Assembly (NCBI RefSeq): GCF_013122565.1
Contig: NZ_CP053258.1
DNA from: Escherichia coli
GTDB lineage: Bacteria; Pseudomonadota; Gammaproteobacteria; Enterobacterales; Enterobacteriaceae
Direction: 5' to 3' (one strand)
DNA length: 64,000 nucleotides
The translations under genes were made by a program, and so were the position numbers. Below the pieces are notes generated by a model. It saw only the letters and a program-made list of their open reading frames with translations, did no database searches and had not been told where the DNA came from. Below are positions 3,763 to 11,948 of this stretch, one piece after another (position 1 is the first letter of the stretch; every line of letters begins with the position of its first letter).

Positions 3763-5259
3763 ATGCAGGGCACAAAAATTCGACTTTTAGCGGGCGGTTT
3801 GCTGATGATGGCCACTGCTGGCTATGTGCAGGCAGATGCGCTCCAGCCTGATCCAGCATGGCAACAGGGGACGCTTTCCAACGGTTTACAGTGGCAAGTG
3901 CTGACCACCCCCCAGCGTCCCAGCGATCGTGTTGAAATTCGCCTGCTGGTTAATACCGGTTCGCTCGCCGAAAGTACACAACAGAGCGGGTACAGTCACG
4001 CCATCCCTCGTATTGCGCTAACGCAAAGCGGTGGCCTTGACGCAGCACAGGCGCGTTCATTGTGGCAGCAGGGGATCGACCCTAAACGCCCTATGCCGCC
4101 GGTAATTGTCTCTTATGACACCACGCTGTTTAATCTGAGTTTGCCCAATAACCGTAACGACTTGCTGAAAGAAGCGCTCTCTTATCTGGCAAATGCCACT
4201 GGCAAACTGACCATCACACCAGAAACCATCAACCACGCGCTGCAAAGTCAGGACATGGTGGCAACCTGGCCTGCCGATACTAAAGAGGGCTGGTGGCGTT
4301 ATCGTCTGAAAGGATCAACCCTGTTAGGTCACGATCCTGCCGATCCGCTGAAACAACCCGTTGAAGCGGAAAAAATTAAAGATTTCTATCAGAAATGGTA
4401 CACCCCGGATGCAATGACGCTGCTGGTGGTGGGAAACGTTGATGCGCGCTCGGTCGTCGACCAAATCAACAAAACGTTTGGCGAACTGAAAGGCAAACGT
4501 GAAACGCCAGCTCCGGTGCCGACGCTTTCTCCGCTGCGTGCGGAAGCGGTGAGTATTATGACTGACGCGGTGCGTCAGGACCGGTTATCTATCATGTGGG
4601 ATACGCCGTGGCAGCCGATTCGTGAATCAGCCGCACTGCTGCGCTACTGGCGTGCGGACCTGGCCCGTGAGGCGCTGTTCTGGCATGTTCAGCAAGCGTT
4701 AAGCGCCAGTAACAGCAAAGACATCGGTCTTGGATTTGACTGCCGTGTGCTGTATCTGCGTGCGCAGTGTGCCATCAACATCGAATCACCAAACGACAAG
4801 CTGAACAGCAACCTTAATCTGGTGGCGCGTGAACTGGCGAAGGTTCGCGATAAAGGTCTGCCGGAAGAAGAGTTCAATGCGTTAGTGGCGCAAAAGAAAC
4901 TGGAGCTGCAGAAACTGTTTGCCGCCTATGCGCGAGCTGATACCGATATTCTGATGGGCCAGCGGATGCGTTCGTTGCAAAATCAGGTTGTCGATATCGC
5001 GCCGGAGCAATATCAGAAACTGCGCCAGGATTTCCTTAATAGCCTGACGGTAGAGATGTTAAATCAGGATCTGCGTCAGCAGTTGTCGAATGATATGGCA
5101 TTAATACTGCTGCAGCCTAAAGGCGAGCCGGAATTTAACATGAAAGCGTTGCAGGCGGCCTGGGATCAAATCATGGCCCCATCTACCGCCGCTGCGACCA
5201 CCTCTGTCGCCACGGATGACGTACATCCTGAAGTTTCGGATATTCCACCCGCACAGTAA
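3763..5259 (+). CDS. yhjJ: YhjJ, periplasmic M16-peptidase-family protein (probably non-catalytic)
   Basis: 498-aa ORF with N-terminal signal peptide (MQGTKIRLLAGGLLMMATAGYVQA); M16-like N-terminal region reads SHAIPR where active enzymes have HxxEH. Confidence 0.85.
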   Translation: MQGTKIRLLAGGLLMMATAGYVQADALQPDPAWQQGTLSNGLQWQVLTTPQRPSDRVEIRLLVNTGSLAESTQQSGYSHAIPRIALTQSGGLDAAQARSLWQQGIDPKRPMPPVIVSYDTTLFNLSLPNNRNDLLKEALSYLANATGKLTITPETINHALQSQDMVATWPADTKEGWWRYRLKGSTLLGHDPADPLKQPVEAEKIKDFYQKWYTPDAMTLLVVGNVDARSVVDQINKTFGELKGKRETPAPVPTLSPLRAEAVSIMTDAVRQDRLSIMWDTPWQPIRESAALLRYWRADLAREALFWHVQQALSASNSKDIGLGFDCRVLYLRAQCAINIESPNDKLNSNLNLVARELAKVRDKGLPEEEFNALVAQKKLELQKLFAAYARADTDILMGQRMRSLQNQVVDIAPEQYQKLRQDFLNSLTVEMLNQDLRQQLSNDMALILLQPKGEPEFNMKALQAAWDQIMAPSTAAATTSVATDDVHPEVSDIPPAQ

Positions 5260-5266
5260 TAAATAA

Positions 5267-5298
5267 CCCGGCAGCGTTTCTTCTGCGCTGCCGGGATT
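5267..5298 (+). terminator. Putative hairpin terminator after yhjJ
   Basis: Stem cccggcagcg / cgctgccggg directly after the yhjJ stop; weak T tract. Confidence 0.4.
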
Positions 5299-5457
5299 AA
5301 CGGTAATGAATAAGTTGCCGTGATATACCCGCAGAGATTTTTCCAGGCACGGCGGTAGCGTGCAGATAACCATTCATTATTAGAATAAACTTACGGCTGT
5401 GTGAGTTTAATTATTTATTGGCTGAATAAATTGCCAGGAAATAGATGGTGTTAAATA

Positions 5458-5718
5458 ATGGCCTATCATATAGAAATATGGGAAATTGAAGAAACTGATA
5501 AAGTAGTAAAATATGAATTTGGACCTATATCTTCTGACTATTGTAGATCTGATTACGGCGAGTTCGTGATAGATAAAAGAACGGGGGAGATGACATTAGT
5601 CAGACTGGTTAAAAACGATTCGGCTAATAAATTTTATTTGCGAGCGAGTTTTAAGATTCTGACCTGTTGGCGAAAGGGCTATTTGCCAAAAACAAGGAAT
5701 GAGCTTCTTAATAAGTAA
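5458..5718 (+). CDS. Hypothetical small protein (86 aa), AT-rich accessory ORF
   Basis: ATG-initiated ORF, very low GC, first of five co-directional small ORFs; no family recognised. Confidence 0.4.
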   Translation: MAYHIEIWEIEETDKVVKYEFGPISSDYCRSDYGEFVIDKRTGEMTLVRLVKNDSANKFYLRASFKILTCWRKGYLPKTRNELLNK

Positions 5719-5779
5719 CTTTGCATAATAAGTGAATTTTCCCATTTTTGGGGGGCAGTCGTTGATTCTTACACAGTTT

Positions 5780-6028
5780 ATGTTATGGGTGCAGAAAAAC
5801 ACTGGGCATAATATTAAAAGCAATGCCAATACCTTATCAACCAGCATAGTTATTGATTTTGATAATGATATCCATATTGCCAGATTTACAGGTTGGGATG
5901 ATTTAAGTTGTATGTCAGAAGTTATATGCGTTGAATCGGGTGATTATAAATTAAATCAGCGAAATGAATTCCATACTTATGATTCGCTAAGGATAATATT
6001 TGATGCTTTAATAGAAAGCATACAGTAA
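5780..6028 (+). CDS. Hypothetical small protein (about 82 aa from first ATG; 98 aa if non-ATG start at 5732)
   Basis: ORF in the same AT-rich cluster; start codon unclear and no convincing RBS. Confidence 0.3.
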   Translation: MLWVQKNTGHNIKSNANTLSTSIVIDFDNDIHIARFTGWDDLSCMSEVICVESGDYKLNQRNEFHTYDSLRIIFDALIESIQ

Positions 6029-6088
6029 CTTTTTTCTTAGTAAGAAAATAATATACACGAGTATATCTAATTAAATTTAGGATAGGCT

Positions 6089-6568
6089 ATGGATTTTCAC
6101 CTGGATATTTTGCTCCCTACACGTTTCGCTCCAGAGGAACTAGATCTACAAGAGGTTATGGTTCACTGGGGTGGGGAAACCTTTCATCGCGACCCTCCTG
6201 TATACGCCTGGTGTAATCATTATCTCTTGCAGAGATGTAATATACCGATTACTTATGGCCAACCTTTAGATGAGCACATAGACTTTAATGAATACCATAT
6301 TTACAACTTCAATGGTTCTATAGTCGATGAGCTGGAAATGGCTGTGAATAAAGGAAAGGATATTTCAACCGATCCTATAATTAAAATTATTAACAACCTG
6401 ATTAGCAAAAAGTACAGGGGGTGGTTAATCTTGTCATTAGATGATGAAAAAATAGAAGTAATTAAAAATATAAGTTCCCAGTGTTCTTTTCAATCGTTAT
6501 TAGTTGATGGACTAAAATGGGAAAGACCACATGGGGTGGCAATATTATATAATTCACACTTAATTTAA
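6089..6568 (+). CDS. Hypothetical protein (159 aa), AT-rich accessory ORF
   Basis: ATG start preceded by aggatagg RBS-like sequence; no recognised motifs. Confidence 0.45.
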   Translation: MDFHLDILLPTRFAPEELDLQEVMVHWGGETFHRDPPVYAWCNHYLLQRCNIPITYGQPLDEHIDFNEYHIYNFNGSIVDELEMAVNKGKDISTDPIIKIINNLISKKYRGWLILSLDDEKIEVIKNISSQCSFQSLLVDGLKWERPHGVAILYNSHLI

Positions 6569-6585
6569 TTAATGAAAGGAAACAT

Positions 6586-6888
6586 ATGTATCGTGCAAAG
6601 GTTGTTTGGCTTACAGATAAAGAAGGTGGTAGAAGGAGCGCTCCTCCCATCGGTAGATACTATCCCGTCTCCAGATTTCCAGAGGAGCAAACTGACTGGC
6701 AAAATAATGCATGGAGTGTTGTTTTTGAATTGGAAAAACCTAATGTAACCGATGGACGTATCGTTTCAATGGGGGGCGTTCAGTTCCTTTTCGATACTGC
6801 CCCTGCACAATGGATGACTAAGTACGAGGCATTTGAAATCTACGAAGGACCAAGAAAAGTCGCAGATGTATTCTTGATAGAAAATTAA
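6586..6888 (+). CDS. Hypothetical protein (100 aa)
   Basis: ATG start preceded by aaaggaaa RBS; 17 nt after the previous ORF stop, suggesting an operon. Confidence 0.45.
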   Translation: MYRAKVVWLTDKEGGRRSAPPIGRYYPVSRFPEEQTDWQNNAWSVVFELEKPNVTDGRIVSMGGVQFLFDTAPAQWMTKYEAFEIYEGPRKVADVFLIEN

Positions 6889-6948
6889 TTTTATTTATGT
6901 CAGTCAATTTAAGCATATTTGCGACTCAACGCATGTTCAGGAGTGTAA

Positions 6949-7482
6949 ATGCGCTACAAAAAAGTCATGCTATTATTGCTAACAGTCATTCTTTGCTTAA
7001 CCGGTCTTTATTCCTGCAACAAAAATTTTCTCTTACTCTGGGATGCCAATAATATTTATGTCAGTACAAAAAATAATATCGATAAAGACAAGGTGAAAAT
7101 AGAATTCGGCATCAGCGTCAACACGATCAACCGAGAAACGGATGCCGAATTATTTGCTGACAGAGATAAGTATACCGTGCTCTTCGATGGTAGCCTGAAA
7201 AGCAAGATGATAAACGAGTACGGCGAAAATGATTTTTTAATTACCTACGATGACCGCTGCTATTTATCATTTCGTCAATTTAAAACCAATCGTCGTCATC
7301 AACATGACTATTATTTTTACTTCTTTAACAAGGATGGGAATGTCTTCGTCACGGTCGAAATTAAAGGTGAGAACCCGCTTAAATTTACACGTAGTTTAAA
7401 TGATATGCGTCAGCAGTTTTCACCATTCCGTAAGGGTAGCACTTCTCACTCCTGCAAGGTTATTTCTTCAGATCCTTCTTAA
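6949..7482 (+). CDS. Hypothetical putative lipoprotein (177 aa)
   Basis: ATG with aggagtg RBS; N-terminal signal-like sequence ending LTGLYSC (lipobox-like cysteine); 3' end overlaps the convergent lipoprotein gene by about 23 nt. Confidence 0.45.
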   Translation: MRYKKVMLLLLTVILCLTGLYSCNKNFLLLWDANNIYVSTKNNIDKDKVKIEFGISVNTINRETDAELFADRDKYTVLFDGSLKSKMINEYGENDFLITYDDRCYLSFRQFKTNRRHQHDYYFYFFNKDGNVFVTVEIKGENPLKFTRSLNDMRQQFSPFRKGSTSHSCKVISSDPS

Positions 7483-9502
7483 ACACTGGTTCTGGACAAT
7501 CACGACCAAAATGCGCAGCCCAGTCAAAAAATTTACCGTTTTTCACGTAGCGTTGATAAATTAATGCACCGGTTTCTGGATCAAGATATCTGACCCAACT
7601 TGCAGCATGGCATAAGACGGCAGCCCATGCTTGGGTTTTAGGGTGAAGTAAATAGGCAGATTGTTCGGCCCATTCCGCAGCCTGCCAGCGGTAATGCAAA
7701 AAGTGATCATCAGCGGTGGGGATCGCGTGGCGAATACGTTTATTTTCTTTACGACTTATCCATTGATCGTTATTGCTGTATTCAAAGGGGGACGAATATT
7801 GCCCGCTGGTAATGGCATAATCGGGATACATTTCATAAGCCACTAATTCGATACCACTGAAACGCAAAAGCCGCGCAGCTTCGTATTGTGCCTGGGCGCG
7901 TTGCTTATCAGGGATGTTTTTATTTTTCGCTATCGCCATTAAATCAGCCAGTTTTTGTGCGGCCTGGCGATAATTGGGAATATCAAACCAATTGATGGCC
8001 TGCTGATATTGACCATGACGTATTAATCGTCTCCCTAATAGCGCACGTAATTTAACATCCGTTGGAATGATATCTGGCGAAATATAATAACCGTAATTGC
8101 TATTGTTTAAATCTACAGGTTTTAAAGGGTGCTGAGGTGCCGGTACGTTGTTTTCAACAAACGCCTGTAACTCCGGCAAGGTCAAAACGTTTTCTGCAAC
8201 CCAGGCTAAATCGGCCCAATAGAGATCTTTCGCCTGGTAAAACAATGCAGCCGCCTGAAGATAATCATCGCGTTTTAATGCTAAAATCGCCTGCTCACTG
8301 GCAATACGGCAAGATGGGATAGTAACTTTATCTCCATGATAATAAGGGCTTTCCTGGTCCATACTTCCCCACATTTCATCGGTCGGGAACAGCGGGACTG
8401 CGCGAGCATAGTGACGCGTTGCCAGTGGAATATCTCCGGCTCGTAATGCCATTTTTGCTTTTAACCATTCGCTTAATCCACTTTCTGGCGCATCCTCCAA
8501 CAGCGTTTGTGCTAACGAATAATTTCCTGCCCGATACGCCAGTGCTGCCAGTCGATCGCTATAACTAAATCCTTTAACTCTGTGTTGACTTAGCAACTTA
8601 ATTAAACGGTCGCGATGCGTTGGACAGGTATAATCTACAAGGTCTTCAGTACAGGCTTCGCTAACATACCCCCAGTCATGACGAATAAAGAGCTCTGCGA
8701 TTACCAGTTGCTGAACCAGTGGATCATCAATAACCGATTCCAGCAGTGGTAAATTTTTCTCCCTGGTTAGATATAGCGAAATCATTCGTAACGAAGCTTT
8801 CCCGGAGGGCGAACCCTGGGCCGCTTGCCGGGCATAAATTTTTACTGCCGCAGCGACATCACCTTTTTTCAGATAATAATGCCCAATCTGACCGAGACTG
8901 GCGAGAGAGAGCTGCTCAGGATCGGCTGCGCCATTACGGACCTCTTCAATGATTTGCTGATAACGTTGTATGGCCTGCTCAGCAATTTCCTGATTAAAGC
9001 CGCCTTTATTGATTATAAGATCGAGATTGTCGTCAGTGGCATCAAATCCCCCTCTTGCCAGACTATATAGCGCAGCAAGACGCCATTCCCCTTGCTCTGT
9101 TTTCGGTAAGGCTAATAATTGCTGAAAGTAAGGGCTATCGTATTTTCCCTGATGAAAATCCTTAGCTCCTGAATAATAAAGCCACTGCGCATCAGATAAT
9201 GGTTTCTGCAATTTTTGCGCGATTTCCAGTGACCTATTTTGCACAGGAGACTCAGCATCATCATCTGTATTTTCCTGCGTTGCCTCCGCGGGCGTATTTT
9301 CATGCCATATTGGTAAACCAGGATCGCGTTTAGCCAACTGTTGTACTTCAAAGACAAAACTGCCATTTGGCATTTCCAGCAGTGCGCTATTGCGGTCAGT
9401 TAACAGATGGTTAGGAATAAATGGTCCACAGGCATTAACATTGGCGCTAATTAGTGAGAGAAATACAATAACGGAAATCCGCGATCTATTAGGGGATAAC
9501 AT
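7460..9502 (-). CDS. Putative outer-membrane/periplasmic lipoprotein with TPR/Sel1-like helical repeats (about 681 aa)
   Basis: Long ORF; most plausible start is the ATG preceded by aaggagag RBS giving MLSPNRSRISVIVFLSLISANVNAC (signal peptide plus lipobox-like Cys); several degenerate A/Y/L-rich helical repeats. Function unknown. Confidence 0.6.
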   Translation of the reverse strand: MLSPNRSRISVIVFLSLISANVNACGPFIPNHLLTDRNSALLEMPNGSFVFEVQQLAKRDPGLPIWHENTPAEATQENTDDDAESPVQNRSLEIAQKLQKPLSDAQWLYYSGAKDFHQGKYDSPYFQQLLALPKTEQGEWRLAALYSLARGGFDATDDNLDLIINKGGFNQEIAEQAIQRYQQIIEEVRNGAADPEQLSLASLGQIGHYYLKKGDVAAAVKIYARQAAQGSPSGKASLRMISLYLTREKNLPLLESVIDDPLVQQLVIAELFIRHDWGYVSEACTEDLVDYTCPTHRDRLIKLLSQHRVKGFSYSDRLAALAYRAGNYSLAQTLLEDAPESGLSEWLKAKMALRAGDIPLATRHYARAVPLFPTDEMWGSMDQESPYYHGDKVTIPSCRIASEQAILALKRDDYLQAAALFYQAKDLYWADLAWVAENVLTLPELQAFVENNVPAPQHPLKPVDLNNSNYGYYISPDIIPTDVKLRALLGRRLIRHGQYQQAINWFDIPNYRQAAQKLADLMAIAKNKNIPDKQRAQAQYEAARLLRFSGIELVAYEMYPDYAITSGQYSSPFEYSNNDQWISRKENKRIRHAIPTADDHFLHYRWQAAEWAEQSAYLLHPKTQAWAAVLCHAASWVRYLDPETGALIYQRYVKNGKFFDWAAHFGRDCPEPVFKKDLKK

Positions 9503-10694
9503 TGAACTCTCCTTGTATTTTTTTATTGCAGCGCGCCCATCCCAGCGGACTGCTTTCTCCGGCACGCAGCTGCCTGTCGCTTATCCTTACAAAATGCAGG
9601 CTGGATGAGCCAGGTTGCACCTGATAGTGGCTTACTCCATCAGCGAATAGACAATCTGCATTGGGCAGAATTATTTGTTTTGGCAACGGCGCATCAATTA
9701 CGCCGCTGTTTTTAAAGGCCAGATCAAAAAGTTGCTTGTCTGTATGTTGAGTAATTATTAACGACCAGCGCGGAGTCAGCGGTTGATGTCGAATCACGGC
9801 TTCCAGTGTTGTCAGTGACCAGGCGCGGCGATCGCCTGCTAACGGTAGCCGAAACCATACCAACCCCTGTAATCCACGCGGTGGTTGCTGTTCTATATAT
9901 TGAATAAACTCGGCAATCGTTTGTGGAGATACACTTAGTTCTTGCATTTCATCAGCAACGTATAGCGGGGATTCGCTTTCGACACGATTATCACTGGTGA
10001 GTGCGGAGCCATAAGCGGGCAATGCGATGAAAAAAGGGTGCGTGGTTTGCCTGGCATATTGCTTTACCCAACGCTGCGCCAGACTGACATCTAACAGGCC
10101 TTTTTCGGGCGACAGCACGTTATGTACCTGGAAAACCGAAGTGTCCGCAATCCGCAATAATCGAGCGAGATGTGGTGATTCAAGCCAGGTGGGCAGGGCG
10201 GTAACGCTGAGTTTTAGATTTGTGGGAAGTGCCTGATGTAACGCACTAAGTAGGGTCTGATATTCCGGCAATTTTGCTGTTGGCGCGTCATAATCAATTT
10301 CCACCCCTGCCAGTGTAATACCTGCGTTTTGCCACTCACGTTGGGTTTGTTGAATATGCTGTATTATTTGCTGGTTATTAAGCCCTGTTAGCTGACCATC
10401 GAGTCGCGCGACCAGCCAGACCGGGCGACCATCCTGCTTAATAAGCGAAGTATTCACCGCAAAATGTCGGATGCCTTCCTGTAGATGAAATTGCATCCCG
10501 AGTATGCGCAGTGTAGAAAAAAGTGAACGGCTTTGTTTTAGAGCGCTGGTATGTTCTGCTGTCCATACACGTTGCCAGATATAGGCTTGCTGATCAAAGC
10601 GAAGCGGCTGTGAGGGGGTAAATAAATTATGCAGCCCATAACCCAGGCAGATCAGAAGAAGTGAAGCTGCAATAATCCTTTTGCAAGATGGCAT
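9489..10694 (-). CDS. Putative secreted or membrane-anchored protein (401 aa), DUF3142-like by recollection
   Basis: ORF with N-terminal hydrophobic segment (RIIAASLLLICLGYGL); stop overlaps the start of the downstream lipoprotein gene by about 14 nt, suggesting translational coupling. Confidence 0.6.
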   Translation of the reverse strand: MPSCKRIIAASLLLICLGYGLHNLFTPSQPLRFDQQAYIWQRVWTAEHTSALKQSRSLFSTLRILGMQFHLQEGIRHFAVNTSLIKQDGRPVWLVARLDGQLTGLNNQQIIQHIQQTQREWQNAGITLAGVEIDYDAPTAKLPEYQTLLSALHQALPTNLKLSVTALPTWLESPHLARLLRIADTSVFQVHNVLSPEKGLLDVSLAQRWVKQYARQTTHPFFIALPAYGSALTSDNRVESESPLYVADEMQELSVSPQTIAEFIQYIEQQPPRGLQGLVWFRLPLAGDRRAWSLTTLEAVIRHQPLTPRWSLIITQHTDKQLFDLAFKNSGVIDAPLPKQIILPNADCLFADGVSHYQVQPGSSSLHFVRISDRQLRAGESSPLGWARCNKKIQGEFNVIP

Positions 10695-10788
10695 ATTGTC
10701 ACGGCATAACGATCATCAACAGGGCGGTAGTGTACTGCCGAAACTATTAACGGAGAACGAATATCTACCCGTTCTCCGTCAAAAACCA

Positions 10789-11718
10789 TTATGCAGGCAT
10801 TGCTTCACGCGGGATAATCGCGCCGCGATACTGAATAACGGTACTTGCGGTCAGGTGCCCGCGTTTCGCCGCGTCTTCCGCACTGCCGCCCGTCAAACGT
10901 ACCGCCAGATAACCGGCACTGAAAGAGTCGCCAGCTGCGGTGGTATCGATCACTTTTTCTTTCGGCAGTTTCACCGCTGGAACATCCACTAACCCTTCGC
11001 CAGCAATAGACACCAGGCAAGAATCCGCCCCGCGTTTCACCACCACTTCTTTCACGCCCGCGTTATGGGTGCGCGCAATGACGTCTTCCACCGGCTGTTG
11101 ACCCCACAGCGCGTCTTCATCGTCCAGCGTCAGGAAGGCGATATCCGTGCATTCCAGCATTTGTTGGTACACCTGCTGTGTCTCTTCTTTGCTGGCCCAC
11201 AGGCGCGGACGATAGTTATTGTCGAAAATCACTTTTCCGCCGTTGGCGCGGCATTCGCGCAGCAGGGAAAGCAGCTTTTCGCGGCTGGTCGGGCTTAAGA
11301 TCGCCAGGCTAATCCCGCTCAGGTAGAGATAATCGAAATTCGCCAGCTCTGCACAAATCGCCGCAGACTGCTCGCTCTCCAGCCAGAATTTGGCAGCGGC
11401 TTCGTTACGCCAGTAGTAGAACGTACGTTCGCCGGTGCTGTCGGTTTCAATGTAGTAAAGGCCCGGCAGACGGTTTTCCATCCGTTGGGTCAGGGAAGTA
11501 TCAACGTTCTCGCCGTGCCAGGCGTCCAGCATCTGCTGGCTAAAACTGTCCGTTCCCAGCGCCGTTACGTAATGAACGGTTAATGCCGCAGGATCGACCT
11601 GACGGGCGATATAGACGGAAGTGTTCAGGGTATCGCCGCCGAAACCGCGCTTAACGTCCGCGCCTTTCTCGGAAAGCTCAATCATGCATTCGCCAATCAC
11701 GGCAATCTTTTTGGACAT
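10789..11718 (-). CDS. kdgK: 2-dehydro-3-deoxygluconokinase KdgK
   Basis: 309 aa from MSKKIAVIGECMIEL; PfkB-family sugar kinase; the ORF track extends 28 codons further upstream. Confidence 0.9.
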   Translation of the reverse strand: MSKKIAVIGECMIELSEKGADVKRGFGGDTLNTSVYIARQVDPAALTVHYVTALGTDSFSQQMLDAWHGENVDTSLTQRMENRLPGLYYIETDSTGERTFYYWRNEAAAKFWLESEQSAAICAELANFDYLYLSGISLAILSPTSREKLLSLLRECRANGGKVIFDNNYRPRLWASKEETQQVYQQMLECTDIAFLTLDDEDALWGQQPVEDVIARTHNAGVKEVVVKRGADSCLVSIAGEGLVDVPAVKLPKEKVIDTTAAGDSFSAGYLAVRLTGGSAEDAAKRGHLTASTVIQYRGAIIPREAMPA

Positions 11719-11948
11719 AGTCGTGAACCTGATCTGTAAAAAATTAGCGTTAGTTTGCGCTGTGGTGGTTTGCTGGTCAACCATATTAAAACAGTGTTCC
11801 ATTATTTTTTTGAGCCAGAACGTATTCCTGAAAGATTCCGTTGTAGAGGGGGAAATTTACCCCGGCCAGGCGGTAAAGTTCTGCCCTTGCGCGCCGATAA
11901 TCTTTGTCGAGTCCGGGCAGCATCACTTTTAAACACAGGACATCTTTG

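Follow-up and report, generated by a model that had tools for sequence, protein, structure and literature searches.

Why do two convergent genes of different composition and ancestry run into each other's coding sequence in this Escherichia coli genome, and does the segment that they share tie them together in regulation? In the window, a stretch of 64,000 nucleotides (nt) of contig NZ_CP053258.1 (assembly GCF_013122565.1), a plus-strand open reading frame (ORF) for a 177-aa protein (6949–7482) ends inside the 3′ end of a minus-strand gene for a 680-aa, TPR-containing putative lipoprotein (7460–9502). Their convergent overlap is 23 nt long (7460–7482) and in phase 123:132, with the plus strand encoding ..VISSDPS before its stop and the minus strand ..(F)KKDLKK before its own. 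The plus-strand stop is a TAA at 7480–7482 and the minus-strand stop is likewise a TAA, with its complement at 7460–7462. Both can be seen in the ORF list and in the sequence itself, which bear out the overlap as a sequence-only reading of this DNA had described it. That reading went further and proposed that the two modules may be linked through antisense regulation or transcriptional interference.

The two genes and their tails

First, are both partners real genes? The 177-aa ORF is preceded by an AGGAG Shine–Dalgarno sequence 6 nt upstream, and its product comprises a signal- or lipoprotein-like N-terminus, a beta-sandwich at residues ~35–150 and, at residues 158–177, a tail that is poorly conserved and evolves fast. 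Compared with the lipobox motif ([LVI][ASTVI][GAS]C), the N-terminus (..LTGLYS followed by Cys) has a Tyr at −2, and the Bacteroidota homologues are without that Cys. An AlphaFold (AF2) model built from 77 sequences has a pLDDT of 87 and consists of an N-terminal helix, either a signal or an anchor, followed by a beta-sandwich at residues 35–149; its confidence goes from above 90 to 73, 63 and then 52 across residues 151–177. Pfam and NCBIfam searches with the ORF returned no family, and a Foldseek search of the PDB with the model gave no match at E ≤ 0.001 and only weak similarity to Ig-like or transthyretin-like beta-sandwiches. The protein has 172 database relatives, few of them from Escherichia or Shigella and most of them unnamed metagenomic sequences; the other relatives that carry an organism name all belong to the Bacteroidota, at 40–60% identity. 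Many residues are invariant among these relatives and every one of them is retained in the Escherichia versions. Judging by its dN/dS of 0.09–0.28 within Escherichia, at dS up to ~1, the core is under purifying selection in this genus.

Beyond the core the picture changes. Conservation across the family ends at about residue 150–157 (..KFTRSLNDMRQQF), after which a further conserved segment, KYxCNxPxDSAGxIYNMIE, is found in the Bacteroidota members and is absent from the Escherichia versions. The latter carry instead one of three alternative tails, which yield proteins of 171, 176/177 and 193/194 aa. It could be argued from the missing motif and its three different replacements that the 177-aa ORF, or at least its 3′ part, is not a functional gene but a remnant in decay, with a frame that by chance is still open into the TPR gene, making the overlap an artefact of annotation; the want of a Pfam or NCBIfam assignment and the truncated or frameshifted variants in the protein database (P0014–P0017) would fit such decay. 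A remnant would, however, hardly be expected to keep so low a dN/dS over its core, all of the family-invariant residues, a good Shine–Dalgarno sequence, a confidently predicted fold and a frame that is intact in all lineages examined, and stop codons, unlike starts, are not an annotation choice. We regard this explanation as very unlikely. A wrong choice of start or stop was considered separately as the source of the overlap and rejected, the stops being unambiguous and the PGAP annotation giving the same pair.

The minus-strand partner is the second gene of an operon, whose first gene (9489–10694, minus strand) encodes a DUF3142 protein (PF11340, E 5e-75) and precedes the TPR gene in every locus examined. 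The longest ORF of the TPR gene extends to 9565. It probably begins with the ATG at 9502, which follows an AAGGAG Shine–Dalgarno sequence, agrees with the 680-aa PGAP models and produces a 14-nt co-directional overlap with the DUF3142 gene that is the same in other loci. The N-terminus of the TPR protein (..ANVNA followed by Cys) has an Asn at −2 as compared to the canonical lipobox, and the Cys is conserved as ACGP in homologues. Pfam and NCBIfam searches with the 680-aa protein gave only weak, sub-threshold TPR matches; its 105 relatives are spread across the Gammaproteobacteria (Serratia, Klebsiella, Pseudocitrobacter, Pseudomonas, and others). Towards the C-terminus the family shares the motif FG.xCPxPxF (in Serratia, Klebsiella, Chania, Pseudocitrobacter, and others), the last Phe codon of which lies at 7481–7483 in the window. 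What follows the motif varies in length and content: no residue in Chania (which ends ..CPAPEF), 3–10 residues in Serratia and Klebsiella, 7–17 in Pseudocitrobacter-like members and, among more remote relatives in the family, a transmembrane tail. Given the homologues, dN/dS and confident fold on the one side and the 105 homologues on the other, the 177-aa ORF and the TPR gene are both genuine protein-coding genes.

The part of the TPR gene that is overlapped (7460–7480) consists of KKDLKK and the stop, all of it variable tail, so that neither product has anything in the overlap but its tail, which is non-conserved and probably disordered. As these tails are short as well, encoding both in the same 23 nt would cost little. 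Could the overlap instead have been selected, either for compaction or for the tails themselves, for example if the TPR lipoprotein needed its Lys-rich KKDLKK and thereby constrained the other frame? In a small sample, the Escherichia alleles do differ conservatively here (KKDLKK, RKELKK, RMELKK), as such a need would have it, but other family members end in unrelated tails of 0–20 residues, and the L009-type Escherichia-like allele has TTLINR or TAVIKR in this place. Selection for compaction or for the tails thus strikes us as most improbable. As a practical caution, the last ~20 residues of either protein should not be taken as functionally meaningful.

A variable island between yhjJ and kdgK

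Second, how did the two genes come to lie tail to tail? In the window, the Escherichia chromosome runs hmsP/pdeK, dctA and yhjJ (3763–5259), then the island under discussion, then kdgK (10789–11802, minus strand); in K-12, just 95 nt of unrelated sequence lie between yhjJ and kdgK. We found nothing relevant in the literature on DUF3142 or on a yhjJ–kdgK island. Four forms of the island can be told apart. The window and genomes of the 2013C-4282 type have four small ORFs and the 177-aa ORF, on which TPR and DUF3142 converge. TUM13936, SMS-3-5 and Escherichia sp. E4742 have only a 176-aa ORF, followed by TPR and DUF3142. In the 042 type, TPR and DUF3142 are both missing, and the small ORFs are accompanied by a 194-aa form of the ORF that converges directly on kdgK. 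Lastly, in L009, a metagenomic contig, a 171-aa homologue is separated from TPR and DUF3142 by five more small ORFs and then 100 nt of spacer. The four small ORFs of the window (5390–6900, plus strand), one of which matches the TriTu immunity family, form a low-G+C block whose presence or absence is independent of the 177-aa ORF.

The sequence-only reading had placed a boundary between compositionally distinct blocks at the overlap, and this holds: G+C steps from 0.36–0.37 to 0.45–0.49, and the blocks are evolutionarily distinct as well. The values are 0.357 for the block of small ORFs and 0.373 for the 177-aa ORF, as against 0.451 for TPR and 0.486 for DUF3142, with flanking core genes at ~0.54. 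Neither unit is consistently tied to the other. The ORF/TPR junction occurs in 30 of 5426 complete E. coli genomes, and ~170 of the 5426 have the small ORF without TPR or DUF3142. The three Bacteroidota loci examined carry a gene of the ORF family without TPR or DUF3142, and other genera carry the operon without the small ORF.

Comparison among the island forms brings the joint into view at nucleotide resolution. Homology between the window and genomes of the 042 type extends to 7464 (..CTGCAAGGttATT). The latter then go on with AACGGAGAACGAATATCTACCCGTTCTCCGT, the inverted repeat that the window has at 10749–10779, where its perfect 11-bp arms (AACGGAGAACG..CGTTCTCCGT) come directly after the end of kdgK. 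These genomes are without 7465–10748, a segment flanked on both sides by a 3-nt ATT (7462–7464 and 10746–10748), and the two types thus differ by a 3.28-kb indel that covers exactly TPR and DUF3142. Going by the 3-nt microhomology and the poorly aligned tail of L009, from which the order of events would have to be read, the 3.28-kb difference is most simply a microhomology-mediated deletion. In the 042 type the small ORF goes on for another 23 codons: it passes through the hairpin repeat, which is translated within the 194-aa ORF, and overlaps kdgK by 29 nt; the small ORF thus reads into whatever adjoins it. The 171-aa homologue of L009 ends at a stop of its own, which falls opposite window codon 7465–7467 (in a tail that aligns poorly), and the TPR gene of L009 is homologous to the window only from about 7480 onwards. 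This leaves 16 nt at 7465–7480 that are homologous neither to the plus-strand continuation of the ORF in the 042 type nor to the L009-type TPR tail, and both frames cross these 16 nt before meeting a stop within the other gene's native sequence.

These observations lead us to believe that the overlap is, in all probability, an incidental scar of genome rearrangement in the variable yhjJ–kdgK island. Two unrelated units would have been brought together at their 3′ ends, leaving hardly any spacer, one of them a low-G+C, Bacteroidota-like gene for a small, predicted exported beta-sandwich protein and the other the enterobacterial DUF3142–TPR operon. At the joint, the small gene may have lost its own stop, the one aligned to 7465–7467 in its relative, and would then read six extra codons (SSDPS) to a TAA or TGA, which would be supplied by the complement of the conserved TPR Phe codon together with the first base of the following Lys or Arg codon. 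The TPR gene in turn would read six variable codons (KKDLKK) past ...CPEPVF to a TAA whose complement, TTA, belongs to the native tail of the small gene. Afterwards the arrangement may simply have been inherited within Escherichia. The length of the overlap calls for no special explanation: each ORF reads on for 6 codons past its conserved or native part, the median stop spacing in the same antisense frames is 15 and 8 codons, and the overlap length is within chance expectation.

Retention, termination and possible coupling

Third, does the persistence of the overlap betray a function? The 23-nt overlap is likewise annotated by PGAP in E. coli 2013C-4282, TUM13936 and SMS-3-5, and the gene calls of Escherichia sp. 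E4742 contain the overlap as well. It is kept, together with both stop positions, in all five sampled Escherichia lineages with the junction (the window, L001, L002, L005 and L007/L008), one of which has a TPR allele that is just 64% identical. Against the origin as an incidental scar, it may be said that the keeping of both stop positions in every sampled junction-bearing lineage could reflect selection. Common descent, combined with the locking of one stop by the conserved Phe codon, would nevertheless account for this retention within Escherichia, and selection on the overlap itself is not needed. One of these lineages, Escherichia sp. E4742, shares 78% identity with the window over the whole island. 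Within the overlap, 4 of 23 positions differ, and the surroundings, taken in bins of 150 nt, are 86–97% identical. In the tail of the plus-strand ORF the replacements are radical (S>F, D>V), and those in the TPR tail (K>R, D>E) are conservative. We considered excess conservation of the overlap and rejected it, the four differences falling within the range of the surroundings. The sequence-only reading had also allowed that, in homologues, one of the ORF ends might turn out to be an artefactual extension: both ends do prove to be lineage-specific extensions past conserved cores, but the stops that close them are genuine in Escherichia.

The same reading was right that no terminator lies between the genes. 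Scans for terminator and promoter consensus sequences over 6500–8000 and 5200–11000 found no terminator-like site at or near the junction, nor any promoter there, with counts at the level of shuffled sequence. No stable RNA fold was predicted at the junction either, where 7400–7560 on the plus strand and 7380–7540 on the minus strand fold more weakly than their shuffles (z +1.18 and +1.53, respectively), and Rfam gave no match over 5200–11000 at E ≤ 1. A bidirectional intrinsic terminator, that is, a G+C-rich hairpin with A- and T-tracts, was looked for between the two stops and not found at the junction, where the genes overlap and leave zero spacer. Elsewhere, the DUF3142–TPR operon is followed by a spacer of 59–231 nt in Serratia, Pseudocitrobacter and Klebsiella, which in Serratia and Pseudocitrobacter contains a strong hairpin. 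That of Serratia (L011) is a textbook bidirectional terminator (AAAAAAGCCCGGCTAGCCGGGCTTTTT) located before rpoH.

What would happen when transcription enters such a junction from both sides? Lacking an intrinsic terminator, the convergent transcripts would need Rho-dependent termination or the polymerases might collide. It is conceivable, then, that the terminator-less overlap is a cis-antisense or transcriptional-interference device, in which one module represses the other through complementary 3′ ends or colliding polymerases. The lack, on both strands, of an intrinsic terminator and of a stable hairpin, the keeping of the overlap in all sampled Escherichia lineages that have both units, the divergent TPR allele included, and the precedent of mscL/arfA (PMC10070815) for regulation through a convergent 3′ overlap all speak for it. 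Yet the pair is not consistently linked among E. coli genomes, five ORFs intervene between its members in L009, and the operon occurs in other genera without the small ORF, being followed by a strong hairpin in Serratia and Pseudocitrobacter; moreover, the junction is unstructured (z > +1 on both strands), and the overlap is no more conserved than what surrounds it. On balance we consider such a device unlikely. A more specific version, a convergent-transcription switch that sets the low-G+C, immunity-like array against the DUF3142–TPR envelope operon, in either direction and by polymerase collision or 3′ antisense pairing, seems quite improbable to us. Judged on genome comparisons, the antisense coupling of the two modules put forward by the sequence-only reading gains no support.

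Additional constraints may come from general features of the cell. In E. coli, H-NS usually silences acquired DNA of low G+C, and Rho usually puts an end to antisense read-through that is not translated. Silencing and Rho together might further limit any interaction between the two units. The overlap should not, in our view, count as evidence for a functional link between the array of small ORFs and the DUF3142–TPR operon.

Comparison with known convergent gene pairs

Finally, how does this locus compare with systems already described? Bidirectional intrinsic terminators occupy the same position between convergent 3′ ends, and the orthologous operon of Serratia has one. The window differs in having neither hairpin nor spacer, and the terminator was either lost or never brought in.

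A closer parallel in layout is mscL–arfA, a pair that co-localizes more often than expected across the Enterobacterales, has an RNase III-processed stem-loop in the 3′ coding sequence of arfA and is subject to antisense RNA regulation in E. coli with measured reciprocal effects on expression (PMC10070815). The pair described here resembles it as a tail-to-tail arrangement of genes with overlapping 3′ ends in the Enterobacteriaceae. It differs from mscL–arfA in two respects, as it shows no consistent linkage and has no structured RNA element at the junction.

Convergent overlapping pairs can arise from the loss of a stop codon and 3′ elongation, an account also attributed to Fukuda et al. (2003). 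In E. coli K-12, 58 convergent overlaps have been counted; 123:132 is the commonest phase among those of at least 5 nt, and mutation of the stop codon is their main origin (Lillo & Krakauer, 2007; PMC2174442). Convergent overlaps of the size and phase seen here are thus fairly common after stop-codon loss (PMC2174442), and the overlap matters little on its own. Like the 3′-elongation pairs of that survey, the present pair joins two genuine genes through a short shared 3′ segment in phase 123:132, has extensions that are not conserved, has non-overlapping relatives with earlier or different stops, and is of a length that fits random read-on. The best-supported conclusion is that the overlap is an ordinary convergent overlap by 3′ elongation, a fresh example of a familiar class. 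It departs from typical members in that the stop was apparently lost at a rearrangement junction, marked by the ATT microhomology, and not through a point mutation, and in that one and the same ORF reads on into TPR in one genome type and into kdgK in another, with a different tail in each. The locus thus offers a clear case in which a neighbour placed by rearrangement sets both the C-terminal tail of an ORF and its convergent overlap.

Variability at the yhjJ–kdgK site

In Escherichia, the yhjJ–kdgK intergenic site (window 5260-10790) is a hot spot of variation: the K-12 site is empty, at 95 nt, whereas at least four different layouts of an island occur outside K-12. Three components, namely the small-ORF block, the 177-aa gene and the DUF3142–TPR operon, come and go there independently of one another, and the bcs cellulose cluster lies within a few kb of the island. 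Directly 3′ of kdgK stands a perfect 11-bp inverted repeat (window 10749-10779; 4567-4597 in L003, the 042-type locus), which carries an A-run on one flank but, read in the direction of kdgK, has no T-run. The strain 042 copy of this repeat falls within an annotated 194-aa CDS; the tail of the encoded protein is therefore the translated hairpin followed by antisense kdgK.

Small ORFs and the 177-aa gene

Within the low-G+C block of four small ORFs (5390-6900, +), the 98-aa ORF (window 5732-6028, +) has a Pfam match to the TriTu family of immunity proteins (E 7.5e-17), and no toxin gene was found near it. Judged by sequence, the ORFs of the block appear to form an orphan immunity-type gene array. 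The annotation of strain 2013C-4282 gives its ORFs 1 and 2 as 141 and 84 aa, unlike those of the window.

The 177-aa protein (window 6949-7482, +) belongs to a family without a name, whose organism-named relatives beyond Escherichia/Shigella are exclusively Bacteroidota (Riemerella, Tenacibaculum, Marivirga and Cyclobacteriaceae), at 40-60% identity. Its G+C content in Escherichia is 37%, which suggests that the gene arrived by cross-phylum transfer. Its neighborhood was compared in three Bacteroidota loci (L010, L014 and L015). The Marivirga and Tenacibaculum homologues sit within small-ORF arrays that include the Imm33 and SMI1_KNR4 immunity-type families, unlike the Riemerella homologue, which is flanked by a redoxin gene and rpmA/rplU.

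The DUF3142–TPR unit and its alleles

The DUF3142 gene (window 9489-10694, −) and the TPR putative lipoprotein gene that follows it (7460-9502, −) overlap by 14 nt. The pair, including this overlap, is a conserved unit in Serratia, Klebsiella and Pseudocitrobacter (L006, L011 and L012), where it occupies unrelated chromosomal locations; that of Serratia adjoins rpoH. No function for the unit was found in the literature searched.

The body of the window's TPR gene (7650-9450, −) is only 47-72% identical to its counterpart in Escherichia sp. E4742 and the two proteins share 64% amino acid identity, whereas the gene's 3′ end (7500-7649) is 97% identical and the 177-aa ORF and DUF3142 gene are ~85-93% identical. 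This contrast suggests that the TPR gene exists as two alleles of deep divergence, which may have been swapped by recombination, or that diversifying selection may act on the putative lipoprotein.
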